Part shown: positions 23,385 through 51,913 of the stretch, in pieces
Position numbering within the stretch: position 1 is the first letter of the stretch
How the letters are laid out: each line of letters opens with the position of its first letter
Source of the DNA: an uncultured Clostridia bacterium
GTDB lineage: Bacteria > Bacillota > Clostridia > UBA1381 > UMGS1253
Reading direction: 5' to 3'
Length of the DNA stretch: 64,000 nucleotides
Assembly: GCA_934457145.1 (NCBI GenBank)
Contig: CAKSHP010000004.1
Location: 37,026 to 101,025 of the forward strand
Program-made: the position numbers and the translations under genes
Notes under the pieces: model-generated
Databases searched by the model: none
What the model was told of the DNA's origin: nothing
Seen by the model: only the letters and a program-made list of their open reading frames with translations

Positions 23385-23670
23385 AAAAAAAGCAACGACA
23401 TAAAAACCAAAACTCGGTTTAGAAAAGCCGTTGCATATTTTCCATATGTGTATAGCATTCGTATACAAATAAATTGCAATAGCTCTCCACTGCCGGAAAA
23501 ACAAATTAGCTCTCCACCAACCAACGCAGTGACAGACACACGGCTGTTAATCCGTATATCCAGACACAAAACCCGCGGAAAATTTTGTTCTTCGGCGATT
23601 TTTCCTTTCGCACAGCGTAATTGACCACCGCAAGCCTGATACTGCATTACTGATAAAAACCGCACCTCTA
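23385..23670 (-). promoter_or_regulatory. Lysine riboswitch (L-box) with terminator-type expression platform
   Basis: The minus strand reads TAGAGGTGCG...CAGTAATGC...GCGAAAGGAAAAATCGCCGAAG...TCTGG...ACAGCCGTGTGTCTGTCACTG...GGTGGAGAGCT. These are the conserved L-box blocks as I recall them from B. subtilis lysC and the T. maritima aptamer. A hairpin GCAACG...CGTTGC plus T7 (23385-23434) lies before the asd RBS. Confidence 0.85.
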
Positions 23671-24047
23671 TTTATTAATATAATACCATTAATATAGCTT
23701 TGTGTCAAATATTTTTTTTAAAAACAAATATTTTTTTCGTTATATTTATTTAAAAGAAAAAAAGGGTATTAAAATTAACTAAAAAATAAAACTCTAAATA
23801 CATACGATTGTAGAAAATATCGGAATTTATGTGTTATAAAATTTAACAAAACGGGAAAGCATATATATGAAAGCAATGATAAAAAGATGCTTTTGCGTCC
23901 GTCCGGGGCAGATTGCGATTTTAAAGCTGAAAATTTTTGAAATCAAAAAGGCGGCGCGCGAAAATCTTCTTTTTTTTGTGCTGTGCAAAAGAAGACTTTT
24001 ATTTATCAGTGTTTATGCCGGTGCACAGCGGCGGAAAGGAGATTTTT

Positions 24048-34209: not shown

Positions 34210-37200
34210 TTATTTTTGAAGAGCCGCAAACTCGGTAACAGAGTTCCAGGAGTTTTCGGTGTTTTGATATCCTGTGTATCTCACATAGCGCACGTTTTGC
34301 GTTTCGGCAAAATCAAAAATCTGCATACCGCCGGTAAGCGCTGTTTGTGTTTTGGGGATAACTGTTTTAAAGTTTGTGTTGTCATTTGAAACGGATATTT
34401 CAAAATTATATTGCCTTGAAAGCGAATTCATAACGGCAATCGCAACTGCGTTTACGGGCTTTGCGCTGCCCAAATCCAAAGTTACCCATTGTCCGTCGCC
34501 GGAGGCTGCCCAGCGTGACTGATCGTCTGTGTTATTATCAGACACTGCCGAGGCTGGGTGGTCTTCCTGAGGCTGCTCGCTTGCAAAATGCGCGGCAACC
34601 TGCAAACGTTTAAATCCGCTTACATCCGAAAGCCTTGGCAAAATCTTTGTTTTCACGATATATGTTTTCTTATACGGCAAAGAAGAGTCTTTAAAAGAAG
34701 TTTCGATTATTGTGTCATCACCGAAATTTTGCGCTTCGGATATTTTATATGAAATATTGTCCTTTGCCGAAACGCTTACCTTTGGTATATCGGTGCTGTC
34801 CGACGTTTTGGTAACGCTGTAAACGGTGCGATCGGAAGCAAAGTTTTCACAAGGCGCGCCGTTTATATATATCATGTCAAGCTCGGGCAGAGAAAAACTT
34901 TCGGTTTCGCCGTCCGGAATTGTCCAGTCGGATATAGGTATGTTTTCTATTTTAGTATTTGCATTCGGATCATCGAGTGCAATATATTTGCATGAAACGT
35001 ATATGCTGCCCGAAGCTGTTGCTTTAAGGCAGAGCTTTTTGTATGCCGAATTTGAAGCCTGACCGGAATAGACGGGCGTTGTCGGCAGAGGAGAAGCGTC
35101 AGCAACGTAAAATTCATAATCCGGGATATTTGAATCAATCATAAATTTTACTTGCTTTCCCTCGTTTGTAAGTATTGCCGTGTGTTTGTCTACAATTTGT
35201 ATGTCGCCTTTTGCGTGAGCAAACCAATAAAACACGCTGTTATCTTTTTTTAGGGTTATTTCATCTCTTATCGTTGCGCTTCTGCGGTCGTCGGAGAGCA
35301 TAAAGCCGCGTATTGCCGATGAGGCATTGTCTTTGTATGCCGGAGTTAAATCGCAGACGGAATATGCGCCGCGGGGCTTTGAAACAAGCGTTGTCACGGG
35401 TGAAAATGCTTTTGAAGGAGTTTGCCCGGCAGAAGAGTCGGGATTTATAACATACAGGTTATGTCCTTCGGGGCGCTGGCGGTAGTAGTGTTTGTCGGCA
35501 TCATGATAGCCTTTCAGCGAATATGAATCGCCGCCTATGTCGTGTGCCCAGCGAACGCCGTCTATATCAACAACAAATGTGCCGCAGTCTAAGTGCGAGT
35601 GGTTTACCTGTGCGTTGCCGGCGTGATATGAAAGCCAGGCCGAGTTTTTATCAGCCGTGTTTTCGCGCATTGAAACAAACTCAACACCGCGGAAATAATA
35701 ATCTTTAAAAACATTTGCGGTTTTGTCTTTGCAATCGGGATTATACCATAAAATATCAAGCGGCGTGGGGGAGTATGTTTTTAAATCTTCATAGCGCACC
35801 GCCGCAATATTGATATCGTTAAACTTTTTTGCAAACCAAAACAAAGTATCGGTATTAAGCGGCGAATATGAGCTGTCGTGGAAATTATTTATTCCTGTCG
35901 GTCCGTTTGATGCAATTGCATAATACGGTGCATTTGAAAGCCCGGGAGCGCGCGAAAGTCCGAAATCCGTTGAAAAACATGTGTCAAGAGTGGAGATGGT
36001 GTTTGCAAGATAGCTTGCCGCATATGTAAAATACATTGTTCCCTCCATCCAGGCTCCGTCGGGGTAAAAGCTTTGCATCATAGATTCAATATCGCGCAGC
36101 GCAATCTGAATTATTTTGCTGCAAAGCCCGGGATTTTTGTCAAACACGGCGAGCGCACCCATAACAGCCGAACCGTTGCAGACTATGTTCCAGTTTGTTT
36201 CATTGCCGCCAAACCACCAGCCGTAGTCGCTTTTTTTATAATACACGTCATAGTAGCAGTTAAGCGAAAGATTAATTATCGCATCTTCCATTACCTTTTT
36301 CTGATTGTCATTTAAATAATCATAGAGCCAGTCATAGCCTATAGCAAACGCACAAGTCATTTCCGCAACGTCAAGAAAATGCGACGGACACCAGTCGGGA
36401 AATTTTGCGGCCGCATTATACACCTTAAATAGATTATCTGCATATTTTTTATCGTTTGTCAGAAGATATGCCATGCCGAGAAGCTTTGATCTTTCATACA
36501 CATCGCGCGAAGTGTATAAAAGTTCGCCGCTTGAAACATCGTATACGGGCAGGCTCTTTTTTAGCGTTTCGTCTGCGGAGGAAAGAAGGTTTTGTTTCCA
36601 TATTTTTGCGCTCTCGTCTTTTTTGCAGTTTTCTAAAACGCTTTTTATATCCGAATTTGAAAGCATAATCCGGGGATGCGAAATTTGTTTTTCGCTAAGC
36701 ATATTTGTTATTTGCAAATCTGTTGGTCTGTCGTATAAAAGATAATTGCTTATTGCCTTAAATTCGCCCTCGGACGCGTTAAATTCGTTATCGCCTATAA
36801 CTATAACGCCCAAATCGTGCCATGTCACGCTTTTGTTTAAAATCTGTTCGCAAAGGGCGCGCAGCGGAAGAAAGGCTCTGTTGTTTTTAATTTCTGCCGC
36901 AATGTCTGAGGTGTATGTGCTGCCGTCTGGCAGAATTATATCTTTGCTGCCGGTTTTTATTTTAGCCTTGCCGTCTATTGTTATTGTTTGAGTTTCGAAA
37001 TTATAGTCAACATCGCATCCGAAAGCCTCCGACACCGCGCGGACGGGAATAAGGGTTCGGTTGTCTTTTATATAAGCGCCGCCGTAGGTCTGGTGTTTTT
37101 CACTATTATAGTAAATATAATTTGAATAAATGCTTAAAGCAACATTGTTTTTCAAAAGCGACACTGCCTGTTTGTCCGATAAATCAATTGCGGGTGCGTC

Positions 37201-38418
37201 TTGTGCGTTGGTGTTTTCCAAAATATCGCGAAGAGTGTTTCCCTCATATATTTTGTAGTTATCTAAAATAATGTTTGCACCGCTTTGCGAGGGAAACATA
37301 TAAAACCTGAAAAGCGACATAGATGTCGGGCCGGACGAAAGAGGCGCCGCATTGCCAAGCTGTTTTTTGTTTAAATAAGGCGTTACCGTGTTTTCCAGAA
37401 GGTCGTATAAAAGCGCAATATTTGTTGTTTTTGAATTATTGTCAAGCTGAACGCTTTCTCCGTTTGAAAACTTTACAGTGCCGTTTTCAAACGACATACC
37501 GCCGAAAAACGAGTTTGAAAAATAGTCTTTACACTGTATTTCGCCTTTATACATTACATTTTTGTAACCAAGGTCAAATTCAAACACCATATATCTTTTT
37601 GCTTTGAATTCAAAATCTATGTGGCATGCGGAAGAATCATCTTGTGAAACAGCTTTTATATATCCGTTTGAATTTGAAAATTCAAGGGCAATTTTATTTG
37701 TTTTTTCATATATTTTAAGTCCGTTTTTTATATTTGTGTCTTTGCTGTTATAATCGTTTGAATAAAAAATTTCATCGCCGACAGTTTCGGTATCGCCTAA
37801 AATATCTGAAATGTTTTCGCGTTCGGCGGGGGTGGTGTCCGTGGCGCCGGCAATTGAAGTGGGGGAGCCTTTTAAACAGATTTGATCTATATAACACACT
37901 GCTCCCGGAGCAAAAGATGAGCGCCAGCCCGATGAGCGAAACGTTATGCTTGAAATTTTATTAAATCCTATGGGGTTTCTTGCCCGGGTTAAATCCTCGT
38001 ATTTAAATGAAAAATCGTTCCACTTTTTTGCCTCAAGCTCAAGGGAGGCATAGTAGTAGTCTGCGTCGGCGGTTGCCGGGTTATCGCTTTCAAGTATCAT
38101 AACGATTTTTGCGTTCTCGTCAGAGTTTAAGTAAACGGAAAATTCAATTTCGCTGTGTTTTGAAAAGTCCTCTGAAGAAGGAATAAATTTTGCGCAGTTT
38201 TTTTCGCCCGCCACAACTGCGGATAAATCCCACTTTGCGCTGTACTTTGCGGTGTTTTTGATTTTTTTGTCGGCTTCAAGTCCCGCTTTTGAAATTGCCG
38301 ATGTGTTTTTCATGTCAACAACAATTGTTTTTTCATCATTTTCGGCAAATGCGTTAATATTTGCAAAAGACAAAAGAATTGCCGCCGATATTATAATTGA
38401 TAGTATTTTTTTTAACAT
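34210..38418 (-). CDS. Large secreted heparinase II/III-like (polysaccharide lyase-type) protein with an N-terminal beta-sandwich + LamG-like + copper-amine-oxidase-N-like modules and a C-terminal F5/8 type C (discoidin/CBM32-like) domain
   Basis: 1402 aa with a signal peptide (ANINAFA/EN). Stalk motifs NRTLIPVRAVSEAFGCDVDY and NRAFLPLRALCEQI. The heparinase II/III signature is NHSHLDCGTFVVDIDGVRWAHDIGGD. The C-terminus has SRWAASGDGQWVTLDLGSAKPVNAVAIAV...YNFEISVSND. Confidence 0.75.
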   Translation of the reverse strand: MLKKILSIIISAAILLSFANINAFAENDEKTIVVDMKNTSAISKAGLEADKKIKNTAKYSAKWDLSAVVAGEKNCAKFIPSSEDFSKHSEIEFSVYLNSDENAKIVMILESDNPATADADYYYASLELEAKKWNDFSFKYEDLTRARNPIGFNKISSITFRSSGWRSSFAPGAVCYIDQICLKGSPTSIAGATDTTPAERENISDILGDTETVGDEIFYSNDYNSKDTNIKNGLKIYEKTNKIALEFSNSNGYIKAVSQDDSSACHIDFEFKAKRYMVFEFDLGYKNVMYKGEIQCKDYFSNSFFGGMSFENGTVKFSNGESVQLDNNSKTTNIALLYDLLENTVTPYLNKKQLGNAAPLSSGPTSMSLFRFYMFPSQSGANIILDNYKIYEGNTLRDILENTNAQDAPAIDLSDKQAVSLLKNNVALSIYSNYIYYNSEKHQTYGGAYIKDNRTLIPVRAVSEAFGCDVDYNFETQTITIDGKAKIKTGSKDIILPDGSTYTSDIAAEIKNNRAFLPLRALCEQILNKSVTWHDLGVIVIGDNEFNASEGEFKAISNYLLYDRPTDLQITNMLSEKQISHPRIMLSNSDIKSVLENCKKDESAKIWKQNLLSSADETLKKSLPVYDVSSGELLYTSRDVYERSKLLGMAYLLTNDKKYADNLFKVYNAAAKFPDWCPSHFLDVAEMTCAFAIGYDWLYDYLNDNQKKVMEDAIINLSLNCYYDVYYKKSDYGWWFGGNETNWNIVCNGSAVMGALAVFDKNPGLCSKIIQIALRDIESMMQSFYPDGAWMEGTMYFTYAASYLANTISTLDTCFSTDFGLSRAPGLSNAPYYAIASNGPTGINNFHDSSYSPLNTDTLFWFAKKFNDINIAAVRYEDLKTYSPTPLDILWYNPDCKDKTANVFKDYYFRGVEFVSMRENTADKNSAWLSYHAGNAQVNHSHLDCGTFVVDIDGVRWAHDIGGDSYSLKGYHDADKHYYRQRPEGHNLYVINPDSSAGQTPSKAFSPVTTLVSKPRGAYSVCDLTPAYKDNASSAIRGFMLSDDRRSATIRDEITLKKDNSVFYWFAHAKGDIQIVDKHTAILTNEGKQVKFMIDSNIPDYEFYVADASPLPTTPVYSGQASNSAYKKLCLKATASGSIYVSCKYIALDDPNANTKIENIPISDWTIPDGETESFSLPELDMIYINGAPCENFASDRTVYSVTKTSDSTDIPKVSVSAKDNISYKISEAQNFGDDTIIETSFKDSSLPYKKTYIVKTKILPRLSDVSGFKRLQVAAHFASEQPQEDHPASAVSDNNTDDQSRWAASGDGQWVTLDLGSAKPVNAVAIAVMNSLSRQYNFEISVSNDNTNFKTVIPKTQTALTGGMQIFDFAETQNVRYVRYTGYQNTENSWNSVTEFAALQK

Positions 38419-40965: not shown

Positions 40966-42105
40966 TTATTTATGTGATTTGTAAAGTCCTAAAAGCTTAA
41001 AGTAGCCGGCTTGTTTTTCAAGCGTGGTTAAAAGCTTTAGTGTATTTTCGGTGCCGCCGTTTATTTCAAAGTCGACAAAGAAATTGAATTTGCTTAAATT
41101 GTCCGTCACGGGGCGGGATTCAAGCTTTAAAAGATTTATATTGCTGTTTGCAAATATCGAAAGATAGTTTGAAAGCGCTCCGTAGGTATGCGAAAGACCG
41201 AAAACAACGGAAACCTTATCAGGCTTAAACACAGAGGTTTTATCCTTTGAAACAATAATAAATCTTGTTGTGTTTGCGCTGCTGTTTGAAATATCTTTTT
41301 TTATTATTTCAAGATTATATGCCGTTTTTGCGCCGATGGATGCAATTGCCGCAACGGTTTTATCTTTTTTATCGCTGACCGTTTTTGCGCTCAGCGCAGT
41401 GTTTAAACATGGAGTTGTTTTGCAGTTTTCAAGTTTTGAAAGAAAATTTGAACACTGATAAAGCGCCTGGGGATGCGATATCACTTCGCGTATATCTTCT
41501 AAAGACGCGCCTTCGCAGCCTAAAAGCAAATGGTCGATTTTCAAATTATACTCGCCGACGATAAATAAATCGTATTTTAAAAGAAGGTCAAAAACCTCGC
41601 TTACCATGCCGGTTGAAAAATTCTCCAAAGGAAGCACACCGTATTTGCATTTTTCGGAGTTTACGGCTTTAAAAACGTCTTCAAAAGTGGATTCGGCGCA
41701 TAAATTCGCGTCACTGCCGAAAAAGGATTTTGTCGCCTGCTGGCTGTTTGCTCCGTTAATTCCCTGAAAGGCAATTTTTTCGTTTGTGGTCGCGGTTAAA
41801 TGAGCGGTCTGGCTTTGAGAAAGCTTTCTTTGATATTCTTTTGAATAGAGCATCATATCGTTTAAAAGCTTCACTGCCCAGTCGCAGTAGTTTTTGTTTT
41901 TTACCAAAGATTTAACGCCCTCAAGCTTTTGAGCCTCTCTTTTTGCGTCAAAAACGGGAAGCGAGTTTTTTATTTTATAGTCTGCAACCTCTTTTGAAAG
42001 GTCCATGCGTTTTTCAAAAAGTTCTATTATTTTTTTATCGGTATCGTTTATATCGTCTCTTACAACGCTTAAATCTCGCATATTAAAATCGGTAAGTCCT
42101 TTCAT
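40966..42105 (-). CDS. pheA: Bifunctional chorismate mutase / prephenate dehydratase
   Basis: 379 aa. An N-terminal type II chorismate mutase helix region (IDDTDKKIIELFEKRMDLS context) is followed by PDT motifs TTRFIIVS and ESRP, and a C-terminal ACT domain. Confidence 0.9.
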   Translation of the reverse strand: MKGLTDFNMRDLSVVRDDINDTDKKIIELFEKRMDLSKEVADYKIKNSLPVFDAKREAQKLEGVKSLVKNKNYCDWAVKLLNDMMLYSKEYQRKLSQSQTAHLTATTNEKIAFQGINGANSQQATKSFFGSDANLCAESTFEDVFKAVNSEKCKYGVLPLENFSTGMVSEVFDLLLKYDLFIVGEYNLKIDHLLLGCEGASLEDIREVISHPQALYQCSNFLSKLENCKTTPCLNTALSAKTVSDKKDKTVAAIASIGAKTAYNLEIIKKDISNSSANTTRFIIVSKDKTSVFKPDKVSVVFGLSHTYGALSNYLSIFANSNINLLKLESRPVTDNLSKFNFFVDFEINGGTENTLKLLTTLEKQAGYFKLLGLYKSHK

Positions 42106-42229: not shown

Positions 42230-43012
42230 TTATTGCAAAAGAAAGTTTTTTCGTTTATATTCGCCGGGAGTTGCGTTGAGAAATTTTTTAAAAACGCGGT
42301 CAAAATAATATGCTGAAGAAAATCCGCACATAGAAGCAATTTTTGAAACGCCGAAATTGCTGCTTATTAAAAGCTGTTTTGCCAAATTCAGCCGAAGCGA
42401 GGTTATAAATTTTACGGGCGTTGTGTGGTATACGGCAAAGAATGTGCGCCTGAAATGCCCTTCGCTCATGTTAGCGGCATCGGCTAAATATTTTACGGTT
42501 AAAGAAGGGTCGGTATAGTTTAAATTGATAATTTTAACGGCTGCTTCAAGCTGTTTTTTTCTTATCGAGGGAATATAGCTGCATATTGAAGAAAAAACAA
42601 TTTTTGAATATATATCATAAAGTATGGATTTGCAGAGTATTTTGTCTGAAAAATTTCCGATTGTCCAGAGATTTAAAAACCGGTAAAATAAATTTTCGGT
42701 TTGGCTTTGGTTTTTGTAAACCGCATTTTCCATAACGGCATTTTTAAATTCAAACAAGAAATCTATAAATATAAAGCTGTAATCCGAAACGGTCACTTCT
42801 ATATCATAAGTGCTTTTATAAGCAAGATAGATTATATCTCCCGGCTCAATAAAATAGTCTTTGCCCGAAAATGTGTATTTTGCACTGCCCGATAAAACAT
42901 ATACGAAACAGTCGCTCTTTCGCTCGCTGCAGTGCGGAGCGGAAACGGGAAAGGTTGCTTTTGTTACCGAGAGGATTTTTTGTATGTTTAATTCGCTGTT
43001 TGTTATCTTCAT
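42230..43012 (-). CDS. AraC-family transcriptional regulator (cupin sensor + HTH), divergent from the glycyl-radical enzyme gene
   Basis: About 260 aa from the ATG at 43012 (RBS GGTGA). It has a cupin-like N-half and a C-terminal AraC HTH (GFSSAYYFDRVFKKFLNATPGEYR). Confidence 0.85.
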   Translation of the reverse strand: MKITNSELNIQKILSVTKATFPVSAPHCSERKSDCFVYVLSGSAKYTFSGKDYFIEPGDIIYLAYKSTYDIEVTVSDYSFIFIDFLFEFKNAVMENAVYKNQSQTENLFYRFLNLWTIGNFSDKILCKSILYDIYSKIVFSSICSYIPSIRKKQLEAAVKIINLNYTDPSLTVKYLADAANMSEGHFRRTFFAVYHTTPVKFITSLRLNLAKQLLISSNFGVSKIASMCGFSSAYYFDRVFKKFLNATPGEYKRKNFLLQ

Positions 43013-43122
43013 TTTTATCACCGAAATTATTTTATAATATTGAAAACCAAAAATCAAGGAAAAACAAAAAAATATGTTTGAAATGTATTATTTTGCTGTT
43101 TTGTGTATTTACAAAATACAAA

Positions 43123-43182
43123 GCAAATGATATTATATTTACGCAAATGATATTATATTTACGCAAATGATATTATATTTAC
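43123..43182 (+). repeat. Three perfect tandem copies of a 20-bp unit (GCAAATGATATTATATTTAC) immediately upstream of the GRE RBS
   Basis: The copies are at 43123-43142, 43143-43162 and 43163-43182, followed by GGAGG (43183-43187) and the ATG at 43195. Each unit contains an extended -10-like TGATATTAT. Confidence 0.95.
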
Positions 43183-43194
43183 GGAGGCGGTAAA

Positions 43195-45354
43195 ATGTTT
43201 GGTGAATTTGAAAAGTATAAATCAAATTTTAAAAATCAAGACGAAAAAAATAACGGACGCTTTGGCGAAGATGAAAAAACGCTTCGGCAAAACATTAGAA
43301 AAATAATAAACGAAAACTCTTCGGTTGCCGGGGCAAAGAAAGAGGCGATAAGATATATTTTATTAAATGCAAATGTCGATATAGCGGAAGAGGATATTTT
43401 TGCCGACAAAATCGAACATTTTGACATTATGAAAGATTTTCTAAACGAACGCATAGAACTTTTGAAACAAAAAGACGAAAGAAAAACCGCAGAAAAACAA
43501 AAACTGCTGGAGGATACCGGCTGTATCACGGCGGGATTTGATTTCGGGCATATCGGACCGGACTGGGACTTTTTAATGCAAAACGGAATTTCAAAAACGA
43601 TAGAGCGGCTTAAAGAGTTTAAACAAAAAAACAAAGATAAAAAAGAGTTTTATGATAGGTGCATAACCGTGTATGAAGCGATACAGTCGCTTTTTTATAA
43701 AATGGCAAAATGCGGCGAAAGCTTAAAAACAAAAAACGGCAGCTTTATTTCAGAAAACCTTAAAAGTCTTGCAAAAAATCCGCCGAAAACTCTTGTGCAG
43801 GCTATGAATCTTAGTTTGCTGATGTATGAAATATTAACAAATTTAGATAACACAACAGTGCGCTCGCTCGGCGGTTTGGATCATTTGTATTATCCGTTTT
43901 ACAAATCCGATCTTGAAAGCAAGCGTTTTACGGAAAAACAGCTTCGAAAATTTACGCGCCTGTTTTTAAAAAAACTCAGCGAAAAAAAAGCGATTGCGAA
44001 TATGCCGTTTTATATATGTTCGGCAGACCAAAACGGAAACGACATGACCAATCCTTATACAAAAGTTTTGATACAGGAGTATTTATCGCTTGATATATAC
44101 GATCCGAAATTTCATGTTATGTATCACAAAAATATTGATAAAGACATACCCGAGATGATTTTAAAAGCGATACGGGACGGAAAAAACAGCTTTGTTTTTA
44201 TAAATTCAGATACGGCGAAAAATGCGCTTGAAAAAATAGGGATAAGCAAAGAAGATGCAAAAAGAATAACCGTTTACGGCTGTTATGAAACGGCTGCCGA
44301 GGGCTGCGAAGTTGCCGCAACGTGCGGAGGATATGTTAATCTGGCAAAAGCAGTTGAGCTTGCAATGTTTAACGGCTGCGATGTTTTATCAAAAAAACAG
44401 ATAGCAATAAAAACAGGGGAAGATTTTGAAAGCTTTGATGAATTTTACGGAGCGGTTAAAAAGCAGATTGAATTTATGACAAACGCCGCAATGGATATAA
44501 ATACCGCATACGAAAAAGGATATGACAAGGTTTTTTCTTCGCCCGTGCTGTCTGCAACATACAAATGCAGCGTGCAGAGCGGAACCGATTTATATTTGGG
44601 CGGTGCAAAGTATAACAATACTTCAATTGTCGGCGCCGGAATTGCAACTCTTGTTGACAGCCTGGCTGCCGTGCGAAAGATTGTTTTTGAAGAAAAAAAG
44701 GTTACGCTCAGCGAGCTTAAAGAAATTCTTAAATCCGACTGGAAAGAAAGAGAAGACCTTTGCAATTACTGTTTAACAAAGCTTTCAAAATACGGAAACG
44801 ATTGCAGCGAGGCAGATATTTACGCTTGTGAAATAACAGAATTTTTCTCACGTCTCGTAAACGGCAAAAAGAACGGGCGCGGCGGAGTTTTTCGCAGCGG
44901 TTTGTTTTCTGTTGATATGAGGTTTGGTTTCGGCAAAAAACTTTGTGCAACGCCGAACGGAAGAAAAAGCGGCGAGCCGATTTCAAAAAATGCCGCGCCT
45001 TCGGACGGAGCGGACAAAAACGGCGTAACAGCATATTTAAACTCTATGCTGAAAATGGATTTTTCAAACTTTCCGGACGGATGCGTTGCAGATGTTGTTT
45101 TGCACTGTTCATCTGTTGAGGGAGATGACGGCATGCAGGCGTTTTTTGGGCTTTTGTATTCGTTTATGAAACGCGGAGGATTTGCAGTTCATTTTAATGT
45201 TTTAAGTCCGCAAAAGTTAAAAAAGGCGCAAAAAGAACCCGAAAAGTATAAAAATCTGCAAATCAGACTGTGCGGCTGGAATGTGCGCTTTACAGATTTG
45301 AGCAAAGAAGAACAGGACAGATTTATTTTGCAGTCGGAAAATGCTTATAATTAA
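43195..45354 (+). CDS. Glycyl-radical enzyme (PFL-like superfamily), short and divergent, substrate unknown
   Basis: 719 aa. The C-terminal glycyl-radical loop is QIRLCGWNVRFTDLSKEEQDRFI (compare PflB RVSGYAVRFNSLTKEQQ). The catalytic loop is VYGCYETAAEG (single Cys, Glu at +2). Confidence 0.85.
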   Translation: MFGEFEKYKSNFKNQDEKNNGRFGEDEKTLRQNIRKIINENSSVAGAKKEAIRYILLNANVDIAEEDIFADKIEHFDIMKDFLNERIELLKQKDERKTAEKQKLLEDTGCITAGFDFGHIGPDWDFLMQNGISKTIERLKEFKQKNKDKKEFYDRCITVYEAIQSLFYKMAKCGESLKTKNGSFISENLKSLAKNPPKTLVQAMNLSLLMYEILTNLDNTTVRSLGGLDHLYYPFYKSDLESKRFTEKQLRKFTRLFLKKLSEKKAIANMPFYICSADQNGNDMTNPYTKVLIQEYLSLDIYDPKFHVMYHKNIDKDIPEMILKAIRDGKNSFVFINSDTAKNALEKIGISKEDAKRITVYGCYETAAEGCEVAATCGGYVNLAKAVELAMFNGCDVLSKKQIAIKTGEDFESFDEFYGAVKKQIEFMTNAAMDINTAYEKGYDKVFSSPVLSATYKCSVQSGTDLYLGGAKYNNTSIVGAGIATLVDSLAAVRKIVFEEKKVTLSELKEILKSDWKEREDLCNYCLTKLSKYGNDCSEADIYACEITEFFSRLVNGKKNGRGGVFRSGLFSVDMRFGFGKKLCATPNGRKSGEPISKNAAPSDGADKNGVTAYLNSMLKMDFSNFPDGCVADVVLHCSSVEGDDGMQAFFGLLYSFMKRGGFAVHFNVLSPQKLKKAQKEPEKYKNLQIRLCGWNVRFTDLSKEEQDRFILQSENAYN

Positions 45355-45371
45355 GAGAAAGGACAATCGTT

Positions 45372-46247
45372 ATGATATTTGATATAAAGAGGTTTGCCGT
45401 TCATGACGGCAACGGAATACGGACAACAGTGTTTTTTAAAGGGTGTCCTTTAAAGTGCGTTTGGTGTCATAATCCGGAGGGGATAGGCTTTAAAAGCCAG
45501 ACGGCATACTATGAGGATAAATGCGTCCGCTGCGGCAGCTGTGTTTCGGTGTGTAAAAACGGCGCGCAAAAAATAGTTGACGGAAAGCATGTGTTTGAAA
45601 GAGAGAGGTGCACAGGCTGCGCAGAATGCGAAAAAGTCTGTCCGCAGGGAGCAATAAAGGTTTACGGGAAAAACATGATGGCAGAAGAAGTTGAAAAAAT
45701 TGTTTTAAAAGACAAAGATTTTTATGAAAGCTCCGGCGGAGGAGTTACGCTTTCGGGCGGAGAATGTTTAATGCAGCCTGAATTTTGCAAAGATATTTTA
45801 AAAAGATTAAAAGAAAAAAATATTAACACAGCCGTTGACACATGCGGATTTGTTTCAAGAGAAGCGATAGATAAGGTTATTGATTATACGGATATGTTTT
45901 TGTATGATATAAAAGCCTTTGACGAAGACGTGCATATAAAATGCTGCGGACATTCAAACAAAATTATACTGGACAATCTTTTATATATTAATTCAAGAAA
46001 CATAAAAACCGAAATACGCATACCATATGTTTATGGGTTTAATGATAATCAGACAGATAAAATATTTAAGTTTTTATCGGATTTAAAATGCATAAGTGCG
46101 GTGAAGATTTTGCCGTATCATAATTATGCGGGCTCAAAATATAAAGCTTTAAACATGGAAAATACGCTTCCCGAAATGACTGACGCAGCCGGGCAGATAG
46201 AAAAAGCAAGAAAAAAAGCAAGCTCATACGGGCTTTTATGCAAATAA
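45372..46247 (+). CDS. Glycyl-radical enzyme activating protein (radical SAM, with two auxiliary 4Fe-4S motifs)
   Basis: 291 aa with GCPLKCVWCHNPE (CxxxCxxC) plus CVRCGSCVSVC and CTGCAECEKVCP. Confidence 0.9.
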   Translation: MIFDIKRFAVHDGNGIRTTVFFKGCPLKCVWCHNPEGIGFKSQTAYYEDKCVRCGSCVSVCKNGAQKIVDGKHVFERERCTGCAECEKVCPQGAIKVYGKNMMAEEVEKIVLKDKDFYESSGGGVTLSGGECLMQPEFCKDILKRLKEKNINTAVDTCGFVSREAIDKVIDYTDMFLYDIKAFDEDVHIKCCGHSNKIILDNLLYINSRNIKTEIRIPYVYGFNDNQTDKIFKFLSDLKCISAVKILPYHNYAGSKYKALNMENTLPEMTDAAGQIEKARKKASSYGLLCK

Positions 46248-46258
46248 AAATGCTGTGT

Positions 46259-46299
46259 AAAAAACGAACGTCTGGCATTCGCCCTGCGTTCGTTTTTTT
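46259..46299 (+). terminator. Rho-independent terminator after the activase gene
   Basis: AAAAACGAACG ... CGTTCGTTTTTTT. Confidence 0.8.
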
Positions 46300-46309
46300 A
46301 ATAAAAATC

Positions 46310-46338
46310 TTGACATTTTAATATAGCGGTCATATAAT
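46310..46338 (+). promoter_or_regulatory. Consensus sigma-A promoter (TTGACA-17-TATAAT)
   Basis: TTGACA at 46310-46315 and TATAAT at 46333-46338. The -10 box ends 1 nt before the ORF-track ATG (46340), which argues for the downstream start at 46385. Confidence 0.6.
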
Positions 46339-46384
46339 TATGAAAAAGACGGCTACAGGAAAGAAAAAAGTGGGGAATGTTGAT

Positions 46385-47197
46385 ATGTTTGAAGATATTT
46401 ATCCCTTTTGCGCGGAAAATGAAAGTCCGTTTGAGATAAGCCTTTGCGGAATATCATATTGCGACGGCAGCTATAAAATAGAGCGGAAAAAATCCGACAT
46501 AAACGTGATAGAATATATCGTTTCGGGAAACGGCAGAGTAAATGAAAATAAAAATGCTTTTAATGCCGGAGAGGGCGATGTCTATTTTTTAAAGCACGGC
46601 AGAGATCACCTTTATTTTTCTGACGCGGACAACCCGTGGGTTAAAATATGGTTTAATTTTAAGGGCGAATTTGCCGATGCGGTAACGAGGTGTTATAATC
46701 TTGAAAACTGCGCGCATTTTCATGCTCCGCAGCTTAGAGATGATTTTGAAGAAGTTATAAAAATGGCAAAAACCGAAACGAAAACAGAGGAGTTTTTCGA
46801 AAAATCGGCGGCAATATTTTTAAAAATTGCGCAAAAGCTTTCAAAACTGAAAAACGAAGAAACAAATAAAAAATCGCAGGTTGCGCAGCTTTTGAAAAAC
46901 AAAATCGATAACAGCGCGGACATTAACAGGCCTTTTGAAGATATACTAAAAGAGCTTTTTTGTTCAAAATGCCATGCAATAAGAGAGTTTAGAAAAGCAT
47001 ACAATATAACGCCGTATGCCTATATTTTAAACAAAAAATTCGAAACCGCAAAAATGCTTTTAACAAACACGGCGCTGCCTGTGGGAGCTATTGCCGAAAA
47101 GCTCGGATTTTGCGATTTACAGTATTTTTGCGTGAGCTTTAAAAAGAGGTTTTCTGTAACGCCGACGGACTATCGAAAAAACAAAACGGAAAAATAA
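46385..47197 (+). CDS. AraC-family transcriptional regulator (cupin + HTH)
   Basis: About 270 aa from MFEDIYPF (RBS GTGGGGA). Has a cupin-like N-half and a C-terminal HTH (GFCDLQYFCVSFKKRFSVTPTDYR). The in-frame ATG at 46340 is an alternative start. Confidence 0.85.
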   Translation: MFEDIYPFCAENESPFEISLCGISYCDGSYKIERKKSDINVIEYIVSGNGRVNENKNAFNAGEGDVYFLKHGRDHLYFSDADNPWVKIWFNFKGEFADAVTRCYNLENCAHFHAPQLRDDFEEVIKMAKTETKTEEFFEKSAAIFLKIAQKLSKLKNEETNKKSQVAQLLKNKIDNSADINRPFEDILKELFCSKCHAIREFRKAYNITPYAYILNKKFETAKMLLTNTALPVGAIAEKLGFCDLQYFCVSFKKRFSVTPTDYRKNKTEK

Positions 47198-47288: not shown

Positions 47289-48479
47289 ATGCCTCAGACA
47301 GATGATGAAAGAAAAATTTTATGGATATGGCTTAAAGATATTTTTAAGTTTTCCGATGTAAAGGTGTTTAGCCTTGTTGAAATTTTCGGCTCGGCAGAAA
47401 ATATTTATAAGGCAGACAGCAATGATTTTAAAAATATCAAAGGACTTTTGCAAAAAGAAATTAATATGCTTTGCGCAAAAGATTTAAGCCGGGCTCAAAA
47501 GACATATGAAAACGCATTAAAATCGGGCACAGACATTATATTAATGCAAGAGGACAGATATCCGTATCTTCTTAAGCAGATTTATCAGCCGCCGCCGGTT
47601 TTGTATGTAAAAGGCAATATAGAATGTGTAAAAGACAGGCTTGTAATTGCCGGCGTCGGAACGAGAAAATGCGATGATATATCTGCAAAAATAATGACAA
47701 ATATCGCATGCGATCTTGCAAAGGCAGGAATAGTTATAGTAAGCGGTATGGCAAAAGGAATTGACTCTGCGGCACACCGCGGCGCTCTGGCAGCCGGCGG
47801 AATAACCGCCGCAGTTTTAGGCACGGCAATAGACAAAATTTATCCGGCCGAAAACCGCGAGCTTTATTATAATATAATAGAAAGCGGCGGAGCGGTAATA
47901 TCAGAGCATCCGCCCGGATACTACGGCTTTAAGTCCGACTTTGTGCTAAGAAACCGAATAATAGCCGGTCTGTCGCACGGAGTGCTGGTATGCAGAGCGC
48001 CTGTGGCAAGCGGAAGCTTAACAACAGCGCGCGCGGCATTGGATTTCGGGCGCGACACATTTTGCGTTCCGGGAGACGCAACAGCTGAGAACGAAGGCTC
48101 GAACCGACTTATAATGGACGGATGCGCAAAAATGATTTTGTCTGCAAAAGACATTATAGAAGAGTATGCGCAAAGCGGCGTATATTACAATTTTTCACCG
48201 GAAAAAATAAAAGAACAGGAAATAAAAAAATTGCAGCCTTTAGATGATAAAGCGGATAAAATTCAAATCTTTGAGAAAAACAAAGAGGAAGGAAAGTATG
48301 AAGCTTTGGATGAAAATCAAAGAAAAGTGGTCATGTATGTAAAGGATAAAAGAATTTTATCAGAGGATATCTGCCAGGCGCTTGGCATGGATGCAAAGGT
48401 GTTGTCGGCAATGATTACAGAGCTTGAAATTGACGATATTTTAACAAACGACAACGGATACATTTCTTTAAATATATAA
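47289..48479 (+). CDS. dprA: DNA-processing protein A
   Basis: 396 aa with a Rossmann-like DprA core containing VSGMAKGIDSAAHRGAL. Confidence 0.9.
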   Translation: MPQTDDERKILWIWLKDIFKFSDVKVFSLVEIFGSAENIYKADSNDFKNIKGLLQKEINMLCAKDLSRAQKTYENALKSGTDIILMQEDRYPYLLKQIYQPPPVLYVKGNIECVKDRLVIAGVGTRKCDDISAKIMTNIACDLAKAGIVIVSGMAKGIDSAAHRGALAAGGITAAVLGTAIDKIYPAENRELYYNIIESGGAVISEHPPGYYGFKSDFVLRNRIIAGLSHGVLVCRAPVASGSLTTARAALDFGRDTFCVPGDATAENEGSNRLIMDGCAKMILSAKDIIEEYAQSGVYYNFSPEKIKEQEIKKLQPLDDKADKIQIFEKNKEEGKYEALDENQRKVVMYVKDKRILSEDICQALGMDAKVLSAMITELEIDDILTNDNGYISLNI

Positions 48480-48504: not shown

Positions 48505-50598
48505 ATGGCAAAAAAGCTTGTTATAGTGGAGTCGCCGTCGAAGGCGGAAACAATAAAAAAATATCTCGGCACAGGGTATAATGTGTCGGCGTCTATGGGA
48601 CATATTATCGATTTGCCGAAAAGCAGTCTCGGTATTGACGTTGATGCCGACTTTGAACCGAAATATATCACTATAAGAGGAAAGGGCGATTTGCTTACAA
48701 AACTTAAAAAAGAAGCAAAAGCTGCCGATAAAGTGTTTTTGGCAACAGACCCTGACCGCGAGGGAGAGGCTATAAGCTGGCATCTTGCATCGGCGCTTAA
48801 TATTGATAAAGAACAGCAGGTGCGCGTTTGTTTTAACGAAATCACGAAAACCGCCGTTCAAAAAGCAATAAAGCAGCCGAGAAAAATAAACGAGGATTTG
48901 GTTGACGCACAGCAGGCGCGCCGCGTACTTGACAGAATAGTGGGTTATAAAATAAGCCCTATTCTCTGGAAGAAAATAAAAAAAGGACTCAGCGCCGGCA
49001 GAGTACAGAGTGTGGCGGCAAGGCTTATATGCGACAGAGAAGACGAAATCGAAGCGTTCACGCCGAGAGAATACTGGTCAATCGGCGCAACGCTTGTTGA
49101 GCCTAAAAGCAAAAAGGAGTTTAAAGCTTCTTTTTACGGAACAAAAAAAGAAAAAATCGAACCCGAAACGCAGGCTCAGGCAGATGATATAATAAAGAAT
49201 TTAGACGGCGCGCAATATGTTGTTGAAAGCATAAAAACAACTCTGTCAAAAAGAAATCCACAGTCTCCGTTTACAACCTCTACAATGCAGCAGGAGGCTT
49301 CAAGAAAGATAAACTTTCAGTCTAAAAAAACAATGCAGATTGCGCAGAACCTGTATGAAGGCGTGACGGTTAAAGGGTATGGAAAAATAGGTCTTATATC
49401 CTATATGCGTACCGACTCCATACGAATTGCCGACGAGGCGCTTGCAGCAGTCAGAGATTATATAACATCCGAATACGGCAAAAATTATCTTCCGGATAAG
49501 GCAAGAGTGTTTAAATCAAAAAAGACTGCTCAGGACGCGCACGAAGCGATAAGACCGACAAACGTGTCGATTACGCCGGAAAGCGTGAAAGGTCAGATAA
49601 CAAACGACCAGTACAAGCTCTATAAGCTGATTTGGGAAAGGTTTGTTGCCTGCCAGATGGAAAACGCATCTATTGAAAATGTTGCATGTGATATAAGCGC
49701 AAAGGATTATTTGTTTAAAGCAAGCGGCTCAAGAGTGGTTTTTGACGGATATATGAAAATTTATATTGAAGGAAGCGACTCAAAAGAGGAAAAACAAAAG
49801 ATGCTGCCAAAGCTTGAAGAAAAGCAAAGCGTTGATTTAAAAGAGCTTGAAGGAAAACAGCACTTTACTCAGCCGCCCGCAAGATACACAGAAGCGACGC
49901 TTATAAAGGCGCTTGAAGAGGACGGCATAGGCAGACCTTCGACGTATATGCCGACTATCACAACCATACTTGCAAGAGGTTATGTTGCAAGAGAGAAAAA
50001 AAGCTTTATTCCGACGGAGCTCGGACGAATTACAACCGAGCTTTTGAAAAAGAATTTTGAAAATATTGTTGATGTTGACTTCACGGCGAACATGGAAGAA
50101 CAGTTAGACGAGGTTGAAGACGGAAAAATAGAGTGGAAAAGCGTTATACGAAAGTTTTATGATCCGTTTATCCGTGAAGTGAATAAGGCCGAAGAAGAAG
50201 TTGGCAAAATTGAAATTGCGCCTGAGGTTTCAGATGTCGCATGCGAAAAATGCGGACGCATGATGGTATATAAAATGGGCAGATACGGGAAATTTCTTGC
50301 GTGTCCCGGGTATCCCGAATGTAAAAACGCAAAGGCAATCAGAATTGAAACCGGGGTAAAATGCCCGAAATGCGGCGGAGAAATTCTTCAAAAGAAAAGC
50401 AAAGCCGGACGGGTTTATTTCGGCTGCGAAAACAACACGAAATGCGATTTTATGACATGGGATATGCCGCTTAAAGATAAAAAGTGTCCGAAATGCGGCG
50501 GGCCGCTGTTTAAAAAGAATGCAAGAGGCGGCGGAAAAACGGTTTGCGTAAAAGAAGGATGCGGATATGAGACAGGCGGTAAGACTAATGAAAAATAA
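48505..50598 (+). CDS. topA: DNA topoisomerase I
   Basis: 697 aa with TOPRIM motifs ([17 protein letters not shown]), an active-site Tyr region (SYMRTDS), and C-terminal Cys4 zinc ribbons (CEKCG..CPGYPEC, CPKCGG). Confidence 0.97.
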
Positions 50599-51913
50599 TG
50601 AAGTTAAAGTTATCGGAGCGGGGCTTGCGGGCTGTGAGGCGGCATGGCAGCTGGCAAACCGGGGCATAAAGGTTAAGCTTTATGAAATGAAGCCTGTTTA
50701 CCGCTCGCCGGCTCATAAAACGGATGATTTTGCCGAGCTTGTGTGCAGCAATTCTTTAAGAAGCGACCAGACGGCAAATGCCGTGGGGCTTTTAAAAGAG
50801 GAAATGCGTATGTTAAATTCTCTTATAATAAGCTGTGCGGATGAAACAAGAGTGCCGGCAGGCGGCGCGCTGGCAGTTGACCGTGACGGTTTTTCAAAGC
50901 TTGTAACAAAAAAGATACATGACCATGAAAATATAGAGGTTATTTCAAAAAAGATTTCCAAAATTGATACTTTGGAAAACACGATTGTTGCCGCAGGACC
51001 TCTTTGCGCCGATGAGCTTGCGCAAAATATTAAAGAGCTGACGGAAAAAAGCGGCGGGTGTTTGCATTTTTTTGATGCGGCGGCGCCAATCGTAACAAAA
51101 GAGAGCATTGATATGACAAAGGCGTTTTTTGCTGCAAGATATGACAGAGGAACGCCCGATTATATAAACTGTCCCATGACAAAAGAAGAATATGAAACGT
51201 TTTATAACGAGCTTATAAATGCAAAGGAGGCGCCGGTGCATGAATTTGAAAACTTTAAGGTTTTTGAAGGCTGTATGCCGGTTGAGGTTATGGCAAAAAG
51301 GGGACATGACACCCTTCTTTACGGACCTTTAAAGCCTGTTGGGCTAACGAATCCCAAAACCGGTAAGGATGATTGCTTTGCCGTTGTTCAGCTTCGTCAG
51401 GACAACAAAGACGCAAGCCTGTATAACATTGTCGGCTTTCAAACGCATCTTAAATTCGGGGAGCAAAAAAGAGTGTTTTCATTAATACCGGGGCTTGAAA
51501 ATGCGGAATTTGTGCGCTACGGCGTTATGCACAGAAACACTTTTATAAACTCGCCGAAGCTTTTAAATAAATACTATCAGTCAAACGATTATGAAAATCT
51601 GTTCTTTGCGGGCCAGATTACAGGTGTTGAAGGATATGTAGAGTCGGCAGCGTCGGGACTTTTGAGCGCGATAAACATGGCAAGAAGAATTTCGGGCAAA
51701 GAAATGGTTGACTTTACAAAAGCGACGGCGATAGGCGCTTTGGCAAATTATATAAGCAATGTTACAGTCGAAAAGTTTCAGCCGATGAACGTTAATTTCG
51801 GTATAATGGAAAAACTCGGCGATAAGGTGCGCAAAAAACGCGAAAGATATGAAAAAATTTCAGAAAAGGCAATAAAAAAACTAAGCGAAATAATAAAATC
51901 AAAGGAAGTGTAG
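50588..51913 (+). CDS. trmFO: Methylenetetrahydrofolate--tRNA-(uracil54-C5)-methyltransferase TrmFO
   Basis: Starts at [23 protein letters not shown], with the ATG overlapping the end of topA. It is in the conserved dprA-topA-trmFO order. Confidence 0.92.

Follow-up and report, generated by a model that had tools for sequence, protein, structure and literature searches.

A monophyletic clade of compact glycyl-radical enzymes in uncultured gut Clostridia lies outside the characterized classes and may act on carbohydrate-derived substrates

The stretch of DNA analyzed here (the window) is 64,000 nucleotides from an uncultured Clostridia bacterium (contig CAKSHP010000004.1, positions 37,026 to 101,025), and it carries a gene for an oxygen-sensitive glycyl-radical enzyme (GRE) of 719 aa directly followed by one for a GRE-activating radical SAM enzyme of 291 aa. 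The GRE is outside all characterized classes and belongs to a distinct clade of compact enzymes; both it and its activase are intact, and they are encoded beside a conserved AraC-family regulator with a conserved upstream box. The best overall explanation, which we hold at a little better than even confidence, is an AraC-controlled GRE operon for C-O cleavage of a carbohydrate-derived small molecule. This kind of enzyme is well known and specialists are aware that many GRE clades are unassigned, the compact clade being undescribed: no account of it was found in the searchable literature or in curated models, and the only public label on relatives is a JGI "formate C-acetyltransferase". The compact GRE corresponds to none of the classes in a June 2026 review of characterized GREs (PMC13450708).

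The protein has a PFL-like domain (PF02901, 5e-91) and a Gly_radical domain (PF01228, 3.3e-20), placing it in the PFL-like division of superfamily IPR004184. Profile scores were judged against the curated NCBIfam cutoffs, and the GRE falls under every one of them, equivalogs and the broad PFL2-3 subfamily alike. Its best score is to TIGR01774 (PFL2/PFL3; formate C-acetyltransferase/glycerol dehydratase), at 339 bits versus a cutoff of 678 bits. Among the equivalogs (HypD, CutC, HpfG, HpsG, PflD-type, HPAD, and IAD) it scores 294 versus 1100 bits for HypD (NF043068), 279 versus 1000 bits for HpfG, 249 versus 1050 bits for CutC (TIGR04394), 244 versus 1109 bits for the PflD type (NF007437), 167 versus 1150 bits for HPAD, 158 versus 1100 bits for IAD, and 245 versus 1000 bits for HpsG. 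The PFL equivalog TIGR01255 gives 80 versus 994 bits, such that the PFL2-3, HypD, and HpfG models lead and the decarboxylase and PFL models are far lower. Global identity to references named from annotated records is 27% for C. butyricum glycerol dehydratase (GD), 25% for E. coli YbiW, 24% for both E. gilvus HypD and E. coli PflD, and 19% for E. coli PflB, and identity to solved GREs spans 19 to 27% by Foldseek and by sequence. A sequence search of solved structures ranks GD (1R8W) best (5.6e-70) and A. fulgidus PFL2 second, followed by CutC and HypD. In a neighbor-joining tree of 47 taxa (722 columns, Poisson distance, rooted on PflB), the compact clade is monophyletic in 100/100 bootstraps and the characterized GREs are all outside it.

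The clade is sizeable. A word-indexed search returned 333 relatives, and the 120 listed are 46 to 63% identical to the window GRE, bar one near-identical strain (99%), with most being ~700 to 725 aa long. A pattern scan of species-representative genomes, one per species, yielded 255 relatives. Of these, 80 were kept for analysis, and every one comes from uncultured Clostridia of the gut (Oscillospiraceae, Faecousia, Avilachnospira, Acutalibacteraceae, and Ruminococcaceae) sampled in humans, chickens, or ruminants. When 1.84 billion cluster representatives were searched exhaustively with HMMER, the result was a continuum of ~110 clusters at 50% identity scoring 300 to 730 bits, and the best characterized GRE in this comparison, at ~240 bits, is under all of them.

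Clade members are recognizable by the signatures DFGH, RSLGG, GCYE, SKN, and R[VL]CGWN. These include Asp116 in DFGH (Gly in the references), Arg223 in RSLGG (the canonical SxGRxDQ Arg is lost in the window's subgroup), Tyr364 in GCYE, Ser597-Lys598-Asn599 (A/P-D/E-G in the eliminase and isomerase references), and Cys693-Gly-Trp695-Asn696 (Ala/Ser-Gly-Tyr-Ser/Ala in the references); Lys305 and Asp633 are also signature residues, the latter being Asn in the eliminase and isomerase references. The window GRE is in the largest subgroup, defined by Cys377 and Asp574, which supplies 60 of the 91 family loci that we compared. Subgroups differ at positions 221, 227, 273, 307, 377, 380, 571, 574, and 576. 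As GREs contact their substrates through strands beta1, beta2, beta3, beta6, and beta8 (PMC8473560), the differences at substrate-contact strand positions suggest that the clade covers several substrate specificities.

The catalytic residues are in place. The radical Gly is Gly694, within the IRLCGWNVRFTDLSKEEQ loop that starts at residue 690, and the thiyl Cys363 and the CXE Glu365 are within VYGCYETAAEG, starting at residue 360; both loops are present as quoted in a prior sequence-only reading of this locus. Gly694, Cys363, Glu365, and His119 are invariant in a 55-sequence family alignment, and in a wider set of 121 representatives they are retained in 120, 121, 115, and 119 proteins, respectively. 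Cys363 aligns with GD Cys433 and PflB Cys419, and Glu365 and His119 align with GD Glu435 and His164. In GD, Cys433 is the thiyl site, Glu435 the base for the substrate hydroxyl, and His164 the acid for the leaving hydroxyl, and the CXE motif is defined for eliminase and isomerase GREs (PMC13450708); G-C363-Y-E365 fits this motif, and Glu365 would be the catalytic base. Other alignable positions include Thr376 and Tyr380, at CutC Thr502 and Tyr506, and Cys377, at GD Asp447. Relative to the Gly-loop fingerprint RVxG[FWY] (PMC11528403), the R-L-C-G-W of the window GRE has Leu in place of Val, which is a conservative deviation; the representatives have Val (71), Leu (40), or Ile (7) at this position and keep the Arg, Gly, and aromatic residues. 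Kinship with the AAREs, which have Ala, Ser, or Thr at the radical Gly, was ruled out by the presence of Gly694, and the sole relative with Ala at this site (P0268, 789 aa) is outside the compact clade.

An AlphaFold2 model built on 55 relatives (pLDDT 93.3, pTM 0.92) matches the ten-stranded barrels of solved GREs with TM scores of 0.85 to 0.89 at 22 to 26% identity in Foldseek, about equally over PFL2-type enzymes, and with lower matches to decarboxylases and X-succinate synthases. The model comparison proposed in the sequence-only reading was thus performed for the fold, and the active-site part was done by alignment, from which we take the likely pocket membership of residues; the orientation of residues 571-576 on beta8 is ambiguous. 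Together, the conserved residues and predicted fold point to an intact, functional enzyme that appears to keep the eliminase/isomerase dyad in an otherwise new pocket. The sequence-only reading had inferred a small-molecule-induced GRE of unassigned chemistry, to be doubted if the protein clustered tightly with a characterized class or if the catalytic Gly or Cys were misaligned as a sign of decay. The core inference holds: the NCBIfam cutoffs are missed, identities are 19 to 27%, the proposed phylogeny sets the clade apart in every bootstrap, and the Gly, Cys, and Glu, which are fully or almost fully conserved over the clade, line up with the catalytic positions.

Some representatives have replaced the CXE Glu, with Asn in P0217, P0237, P0241, and P0265, and with Asp in P0184 and P0218. 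These GCNN, GCFN, GCYN, or GCWD proteins keep the Cys, the Gly, and His119, which suggests that these subgroups use another mechanism or proton relay.

The GRE is 68 residues shorter than C. butyricum GD (787 aa) and 46 shorter than E. coli PflD (765 aa). Alignment with GD shows 80 residues lost and 11 gained, the main loss being a 34-residue deletion in the pre-barrel helices (GD 96-129), accompanied by seven lesser trims (GD 1-7, 78-81, 155-158, 194-198, 232-239, 322-330, and 340-343). Relatives are 683 to 754 aa in the 55-sequence alignment and 652 to 775 aa over the clade in the tree, and shortness is a stable clade trait and not decay. The prior claim of unusual shortness is correct as to the 719 aa, but characterized CXE-type GREs start at 765 aa and not at ~790 aa. 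The conserved GRE dimer interface sits in the pre-barrel N-terminal helices (PMC13450708), and because GD 96-129 is lost in this region, an altered oligomeric state of the compact GREs is possible.

The activase has a Radical_SAM domain and two Fer4 stretches in Pfam, with a CX3CX2C motif at residue 25 and CX2CX2CX3C motifs at residues 51 and 80, bearing out the two extra ferredoxin-type clusters ascribed to it previously. It passes the TIGR02494 model for GRE activases with a ferredoxin-like insert (329 bits versus a cutoff of 174), and an activase gene is present in 68 of the 91 family loci, adjoining the GRE gene in 59. These motifs and its position indicate a dedicated partner of the GRE that likely carries three Fe-S clusters.

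The components of the module in the window are as follows; the lengths and coordinates of the two enzyme genes agree with those given in the sequence-only reading.

42230..43012, minus strand: upstream AraC-family regulator, 260 aa, divergent from the GRE gene (HTH_18, 6.5e-21, and a weak cupin match)
43074..43092, plus strand: candidate AraC operator ATGTTTGAAATGTATTATT, ~16 nt 5' of the -35 (family consensus ATGTTYGAAAAGTAATAAT)
43108..43136, plus strand: promoter-like site of the GRE operon, -35 TTTACA, 17-nt spacer, extended -10 TGaTATTAT
43123..43182, plus strand: three perfect tandem copies of a 20-bp unit, GCAAATGATATTATATTTAC (TRF, 3.0 copies, 100% match)
43195..45354, plus strand: GRE gene of the compact clade, an open reading frame (ORF) of 719 aa with ribosome-binding site GGAGG at 43183-43187
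45372..46247, plus strand: GRE-activating radical SAM enzyme, 291 aa (TIGR02494, Pfam, and Cys motifs)
46259..46298, plus strand: intrinsic terminator hairpin closing the GRE-activase operon (fold of -22 kcal/mol, followed by a U-tract)

The activase gene starts 17 nt past the GRE stop codon, and the hairpin that closes the operon is strong (z = -5.5, with 0/200 shuffles folding as well). The family's commonest layout is that of the window, with a divergent AraC gene followed by the GRE and activase genes; an AraC gene is present in 65/91 loci and adjoins the GRE in 53. The window's upstream regulator is 44 to 48% identical to those upstream in other family loci. For its sensor domain (residues 1-150) we found no solved relative and a sub-threshold cupin match, and solved relatives were found only for its HTH domain, the C-terminal double helix-turn-helix expected of an AraC/XylS factor. 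Some family loci are without an adjoining activase or AraC gene, and several have apparent paired GRE ORFs, either a GRE gene, an opposing AraC gene, a second GRE gene, and an activase gene, or two successive GRE genes and an activase gene; these could be paralogues or split genes.

The core of the upstream box, GTTYGAAA, is found in 25/86 upstream regions in the sense orientation versus 1/86 in the antisense, and in most core-bearing loci it is followed by TTTACA or TTGACA and then by a -10 at a similar distance. The ATGTTYGAAAAGTAATAAT box is seen 5' of the GRE promoter in L009, L011-L018, L025, L026, L029, L061, and other loci, and we infer that the AraC regulator conserved alongside it may use this box as its operator. 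The window's GRE promoter has 10/12 consensus matches with a TG (TTTACA at 43108 and the extended -10 at 43131-43136), and its position relative to the box is kept in other loci. An Rfam scan of the window revealed no riboswitch in the GRE leader; its only family match is a lysine riboswitch (RF00168, 98 bits) at 23472-23678 on the minus strand.

The tandem repeat lies between the -35 and the ribosome-binding site, and its first copy holds the extended -10; therefore, its copy number alters the leader length and adds -10-like sites, the two extra copies lengthening the leader by 40 nt. The repeat is unique in the window (0 expected by chance), and has two copies in a near-identical strain (L096, GRE 99% identical); none of the other 85 upstream regions in the family contains it, which rules it out as a family regulatory feature. 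We read it as a recent copy-number variant at the strain level, with a possible influence on expression.

Neighbor clustering of 1005 ORFs from the 91 loci and a Pfam census of 115 flanking genes showed that the activase and the upstream AraC gene alone recur; nothing else is in more than 7/91 loci, and a conserved pathway partner was thereby ruled out. The absence of pathway partners reported for the window, with no transporter, microcompartment, or dehydrogenase gene adjoining the GRE-activase pair, is thus true of the whole family. Carbohydrate functions are among those that recur in the 115 flanking genes, including glycoside hydrolase (GH) families GH43 (4), GH2 (4), GH78 (2), and GH5 (2), together with 3-keto-disaccharide hydrolase (3), SGL lactonase (3), and PfkB (2). 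As a control, 86 genes of these loci at a median of 6.8 kb from the GRE were examined, and no GH family has more than one member among the top 25 families listed. At one locus (L002), the start of the GRE gene and an SGL lactonase gene share 4 nt, and at another (L009), the module sits amid lyxose-isomerase-like, PfkB, GH38, and FGGY genes. Three loci (L004-L006) have the GRE beside holin, amidase, and sortase genes.

In four relatives the GRE is naturally fused behind another domain, at the C-terminal end of the protein, and all four have the full clade signature. The partners are a GH78 alpha-L-rhamnosidase (P0227), a GH2 mannosidase-like domain (P0257), a CE7 acetyl-xylan esterase (P0259), and a 3-keto-disaccharide hydrolase (P0269). 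Three fusion loci were checked, covering the GH78, 3-keto-disaccharide hydrolase, and CE7 partners, and in each the fusion is a single ORF within a glycan operon:

L098, 5001-9530: single-ORF fusion with GH78
L099, 6001-8826: single-ORF fusion
L100, 6001-9462: single-ORF fusion

One fusion locus has three GH92 genes nearby, one has a GFO/IDH/MocA oxidoreductase, a GH42-like gene, and an esterase, and one has an arabinofuranosidase, a GFO/IDH/MocA oxidoreductase, and a GlcNAc-2-epimerase-like gene; no activase is within the stretches fetched around these three loci. The fusions and the neighbor enrichment point to a carbohydrate-derived substrate, a proposition that we consider evenly balanced, and they suggest a lead and not proof.

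Elsewhere in the window, the module is flanked by the following genes, as previously described.

40966-42105, minus strand: pheA (CM_2, PDT, and ACT domains in Pfam)
46385..47197, plus strand: second AraC-family gene (HTH_18, 5.5e-17; AraC_binding, 1.2e-10), listed for exclusion from the module
47289-48479, plus strand: dprA

The sequence-only reading had the GRE-activase pair bracketed by two AraC-type regulators. Both genes are present and the upstream one is in the conserved module, but the downstream one is a separate unit, as it lies past a strong terminator, has a perfect promoter of its own (TTGACA-17-TATAAT at 46310-46338, 12/12 matches, just past the terminator), and has no counterpart elsewhere, with no orthologue at other family loci (30% identity or less over most of its length). 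It was rejected as a member on these grounds and is probably not part of the module. Its -10 ends 1 nt before an ATG at 46340, and the ATG at 46385 is therefore favored as its start. Farther away, a gene at 34210-38418 (minus strand) codes for a 1402-aa protein with a signal-peptide-like N-terminus; an identical gene in L096 has Cu_amine_oxidN1, DSE-like_N, weak C-terminal heparinase II/III, and F5/F8 type C domains, and the product is probably a secreted polysaccharide-acting enzyme, fitting a glycan-degrading host. Two ORFs at 48505-50598 (697 aa) and 50567-51913 (448 aa) are on the same strand with a 32-nt overlap, and from the look of their translations we take them to be topA and trmFO, respectively.

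We propose that the GRE and its own activase form a self-contained, inducible two-gene operon. The divergent AraC regulator would sense the substrate and activate transcription from the box 5' of the -35, and the activase would install the radical on Gly694, from which it would pass to Cys363. Cys363 would then take a hydrogen from the carbinol carbon of the substrate, with Glu365 deprotonating the substrate hydroxyl and His119 protonating the leaving group on the adjacent carbon, such that a C-O bond (less likely a C-N bond) would break in a dehydration or a ring-opening isomerization, analogous to the chemistry of glycerol dehydratase, HypD, and YbiW/PflD. Elimination or isomerization of the CXE type is the most likely chemistry, because the CXE Glu and the GD-type His are kept, and we consider it fairly probable. 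The substrate may be a sugar, a sugar acid or lactone, or an anhydro- or deoxy-sugar, and no pathway genes would travel with the module because the product would feed into ordinary metabolism.

Several characterized GREs resemble the compact enzyme in part. GD (DhaB1 of C. butyricum; PDB 1R8W/1R9D) matches the model with a TMq of 0.86 and with its Cys, Glu, and His aligned, and its locus also has an activase gene directly downstream and an AraC-type regulator upstream. It differs in that GD Asp447, Ser282, and His281 are replaced by Cys377, Val222, and Thr221, the canonical SxGRxDQ Arg is Gly227 in the compact GRE with Arg223 invariant instead, the Gly loop is RVAGYS in GD and RLCGWN in the compact GRE, and the compact GRE has no adjoining 1,3-propanediol dehydrogenase. 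From the 1R9D structure, we take Ser282 and Asp447 to be the diol-binding residues. Of the glycerol/diol dehydratase residue set, the compact GRE thus has the His and Glu, with the Ser282 and Asp447 equivalents replaced. E. coli YbiW and PflD (PDB 8ID7, 8ID0, and 8YJO) share the CXE motif, the conserved His, and a TMq of 0.86, and pflD adjoins yijO, presumably an AraC-type gene, much as the compact GRE gene adjoins its regulator. YbiW and PflD are the sole characterized carbohydrate-acting GREs and cleave a ring C-O bond after hydrogen abstraction at C2 (PMC13450708). These genes sit with phosphotransferase system or sugar-phosphatase genes, whereas the compact clade has no conserved partners, and every compact-clade signature residue differs.

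The top structural match is A. fulgidus PFL2 (PDB 2F3O; E value of 3.2e-42, TMq 0.85), which has GCVE and a Trp after the radical Gly (RVAGW), but it is archaeal, 776 aa long, and 24% identical, and it is without the Cys before the Gly or the other clade signatures; its own function is debated (PMC13450708). HypD and CutC have the CXE motif and the fold in common with the compact GRE (TMq 0.86 to 0.87), and the activase is most similar to the HypD activase model (322 bits). However, Asp287 of E. gilvus HypD, which likely corresponds to Asp278 of C. difficile HypD, aligns with Thr221, and there are no P5C reductase or microcompartment genes near the compact GRE. PflB shares the GRE fold and the Gly_radical domain, but the compact GRE has a three-cluster activase that is not of the PflA type, and it lacks the Cys-Cys pair and both substrate Arg residues (Arg176 and Arg435).

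A number of observations weigh against C-O cleavage of a carbohydrate-derived molecule. Asp116, Arg223, Lys305, Lys598, and Asp633 are without counterparts in known eliminases, and because these charged clade-specific residues are present and Cys377 replaces GD Asp447, the active site is no copy of any known one. Strand repositioning, as in the IslA structure, makes GRE chemistry and substrates hard to predict bioinformatically (PMC8473560). On the carbohydrate side, no neighbor family accounts for more than 4 of the 115 flanking genes, the distal control is rough, covering the top 25 families only, and the host genomes are rich in carbohydrate-active enzymes anyway. The fusions are 27 to 29% identical to the window GRE and differ from it at the putative specificity sites 377 and 574, and in two related loci an SNF-family transporter (amino acid or amine type) is beside the regulator.

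The leading alternative, which we consider unlikely, is a stand-alone decarboxylase in the style of HPAD, PAD, IAD, or AAD, which would take CO2 off an organic acid and give a volatile or excreted product, such that no downstream genes are needed. The conserved module of regulator, GRE, and activase without downstream enzymes is the layout of decarboxylase loci, SNF or MFS transporters adjoin in some loci, and a carboxylate could be held by Arg223, which is invariant, and Lys305, which is nearly so. A Glu two residues past the catalytic Cys is found in these enzymes too (HPAD Glu505 and IAD Glu502; PMC13450708). However, the HPAD and IAD scores are only about half of the 339, 294, and 279 bits for the eliminase models, HPAD is near the bottom of the structural matches (TMq 0.79), and the GD His164 equivalent is conserved; glycosidase or esterase fusions and carbohydrate neighbors would also be unexpected for arylacetate decarboxylases.

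Slightly less likely still is a chemistry new to PFL-like GREs through Cys377 and Cys693, for example, a reductive or thiol-assisted reaction like that of class III ribonucleotide reductases (RNRs). The Gly loops of class III RNRs typically have a Cys ahead of the radical Gly, and Cys693 is present in 100/121 representatives, whereas all characterized PFL-like references have Ala or Ser. Cys377 is on the substrate-contacting beta6, next to the counterpart of CutC Thr502; its conservation reaches at least 90% in the alignment of the window's family, and Cys is the commonest residue at this site in the wider set (53/121). The site nevertheless varies between subgroups (Gly, Glu, Ala, Met, or Leu), in the manner of a specificity residue and not of a catalytic one, no thioredoxin or formate-related reductant partner is conserved nearby, and the CXE Glu and the His suffice for known eliminase chemistry.

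Two further alternatives are very improbable. A variant pyruvate or 2-ketoacid formate-lyase would accord with the length of 719 aa, which most eliminases exceed by more than PflB (760 aa) does, and with the tail GWNVRFTDLSKEEQDRFI, which is as in PflB at 9/18 positions and was the basis of the mixed PFL-like signature in the sequence-only reading. That signature did not survive, as the tail matches PflD equally (9/18) and YbiW at 8/18, and is thus not PFL-specific, and the catalytic residues of PFL are not retained, with one Cys in place of the pair and with Gly362, His119, and Tyr380 at the positions of PflB Cys418, Arg176, and Arg435. With these residues missing, with TIGR01255 at 80 versus 994 bits, and with PflB the least identical of all references (19%), the GRE is no formate-lyase and this reading is effectively refuted. 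A decaying, non-functional remnant shortened by deletions, to which the loss of 46 to 68 residues relative to characterized relatives and the family loci without an adjoining activase might point, is already refuted by conservation, since the short length is stable over the clade, the ORF is intact with a ribosome-binding site, the catalytic residues are invariant, the fold prediction is confident and complete, and an intact cognate activase, a terminator, a promoter, and a conserved operator are all present.

A more specific proposal within carbohydrate C-O cleavage, which we offer as a long shot, is that the compact clade consists of radical glycoside or ether lyases, with hydrogen abstraction at a sugar C2 or C3; the CXE Glu may deprotonate and an O substituent on the neighboring carbon may be expelled. 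If true, these enzymes would cut glycosidic, anhydro-ring, and ether C-O bonds beyond the reach of ordinary glycoside hydrolases and would extend the ring-opening chemistry of YbiW and PflD to unphosphorylated glycans. It would also explain the fusions to rhamnosidase, mannosidase, acetyl-esterase, and 3-keto-disaccharide-hydrolase domains, and imply that uncultured gut Clostridia degrade glycans anaerobically by a route so far unrecognized.

Some of the weightiest anaerobic reactions in gut microbes are catalyzed by GREs, among them those that form trimethylamine, p-cresol, skatole, and H2S precursors. The compact clade is large, monophyletic, and structurally compact, with its own Gly-loop and Cys-loop signatures, and it offers several handles, including a minimal two-gene operon, a regulator and candidate operator that could serve as a biosensor for the inducer, and a fusion-based carbohydrate lead. 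Its reaction, once identified, would be a new GRE function and might bring to light a new step by which glycans or sugars are catabolized anaerobically.

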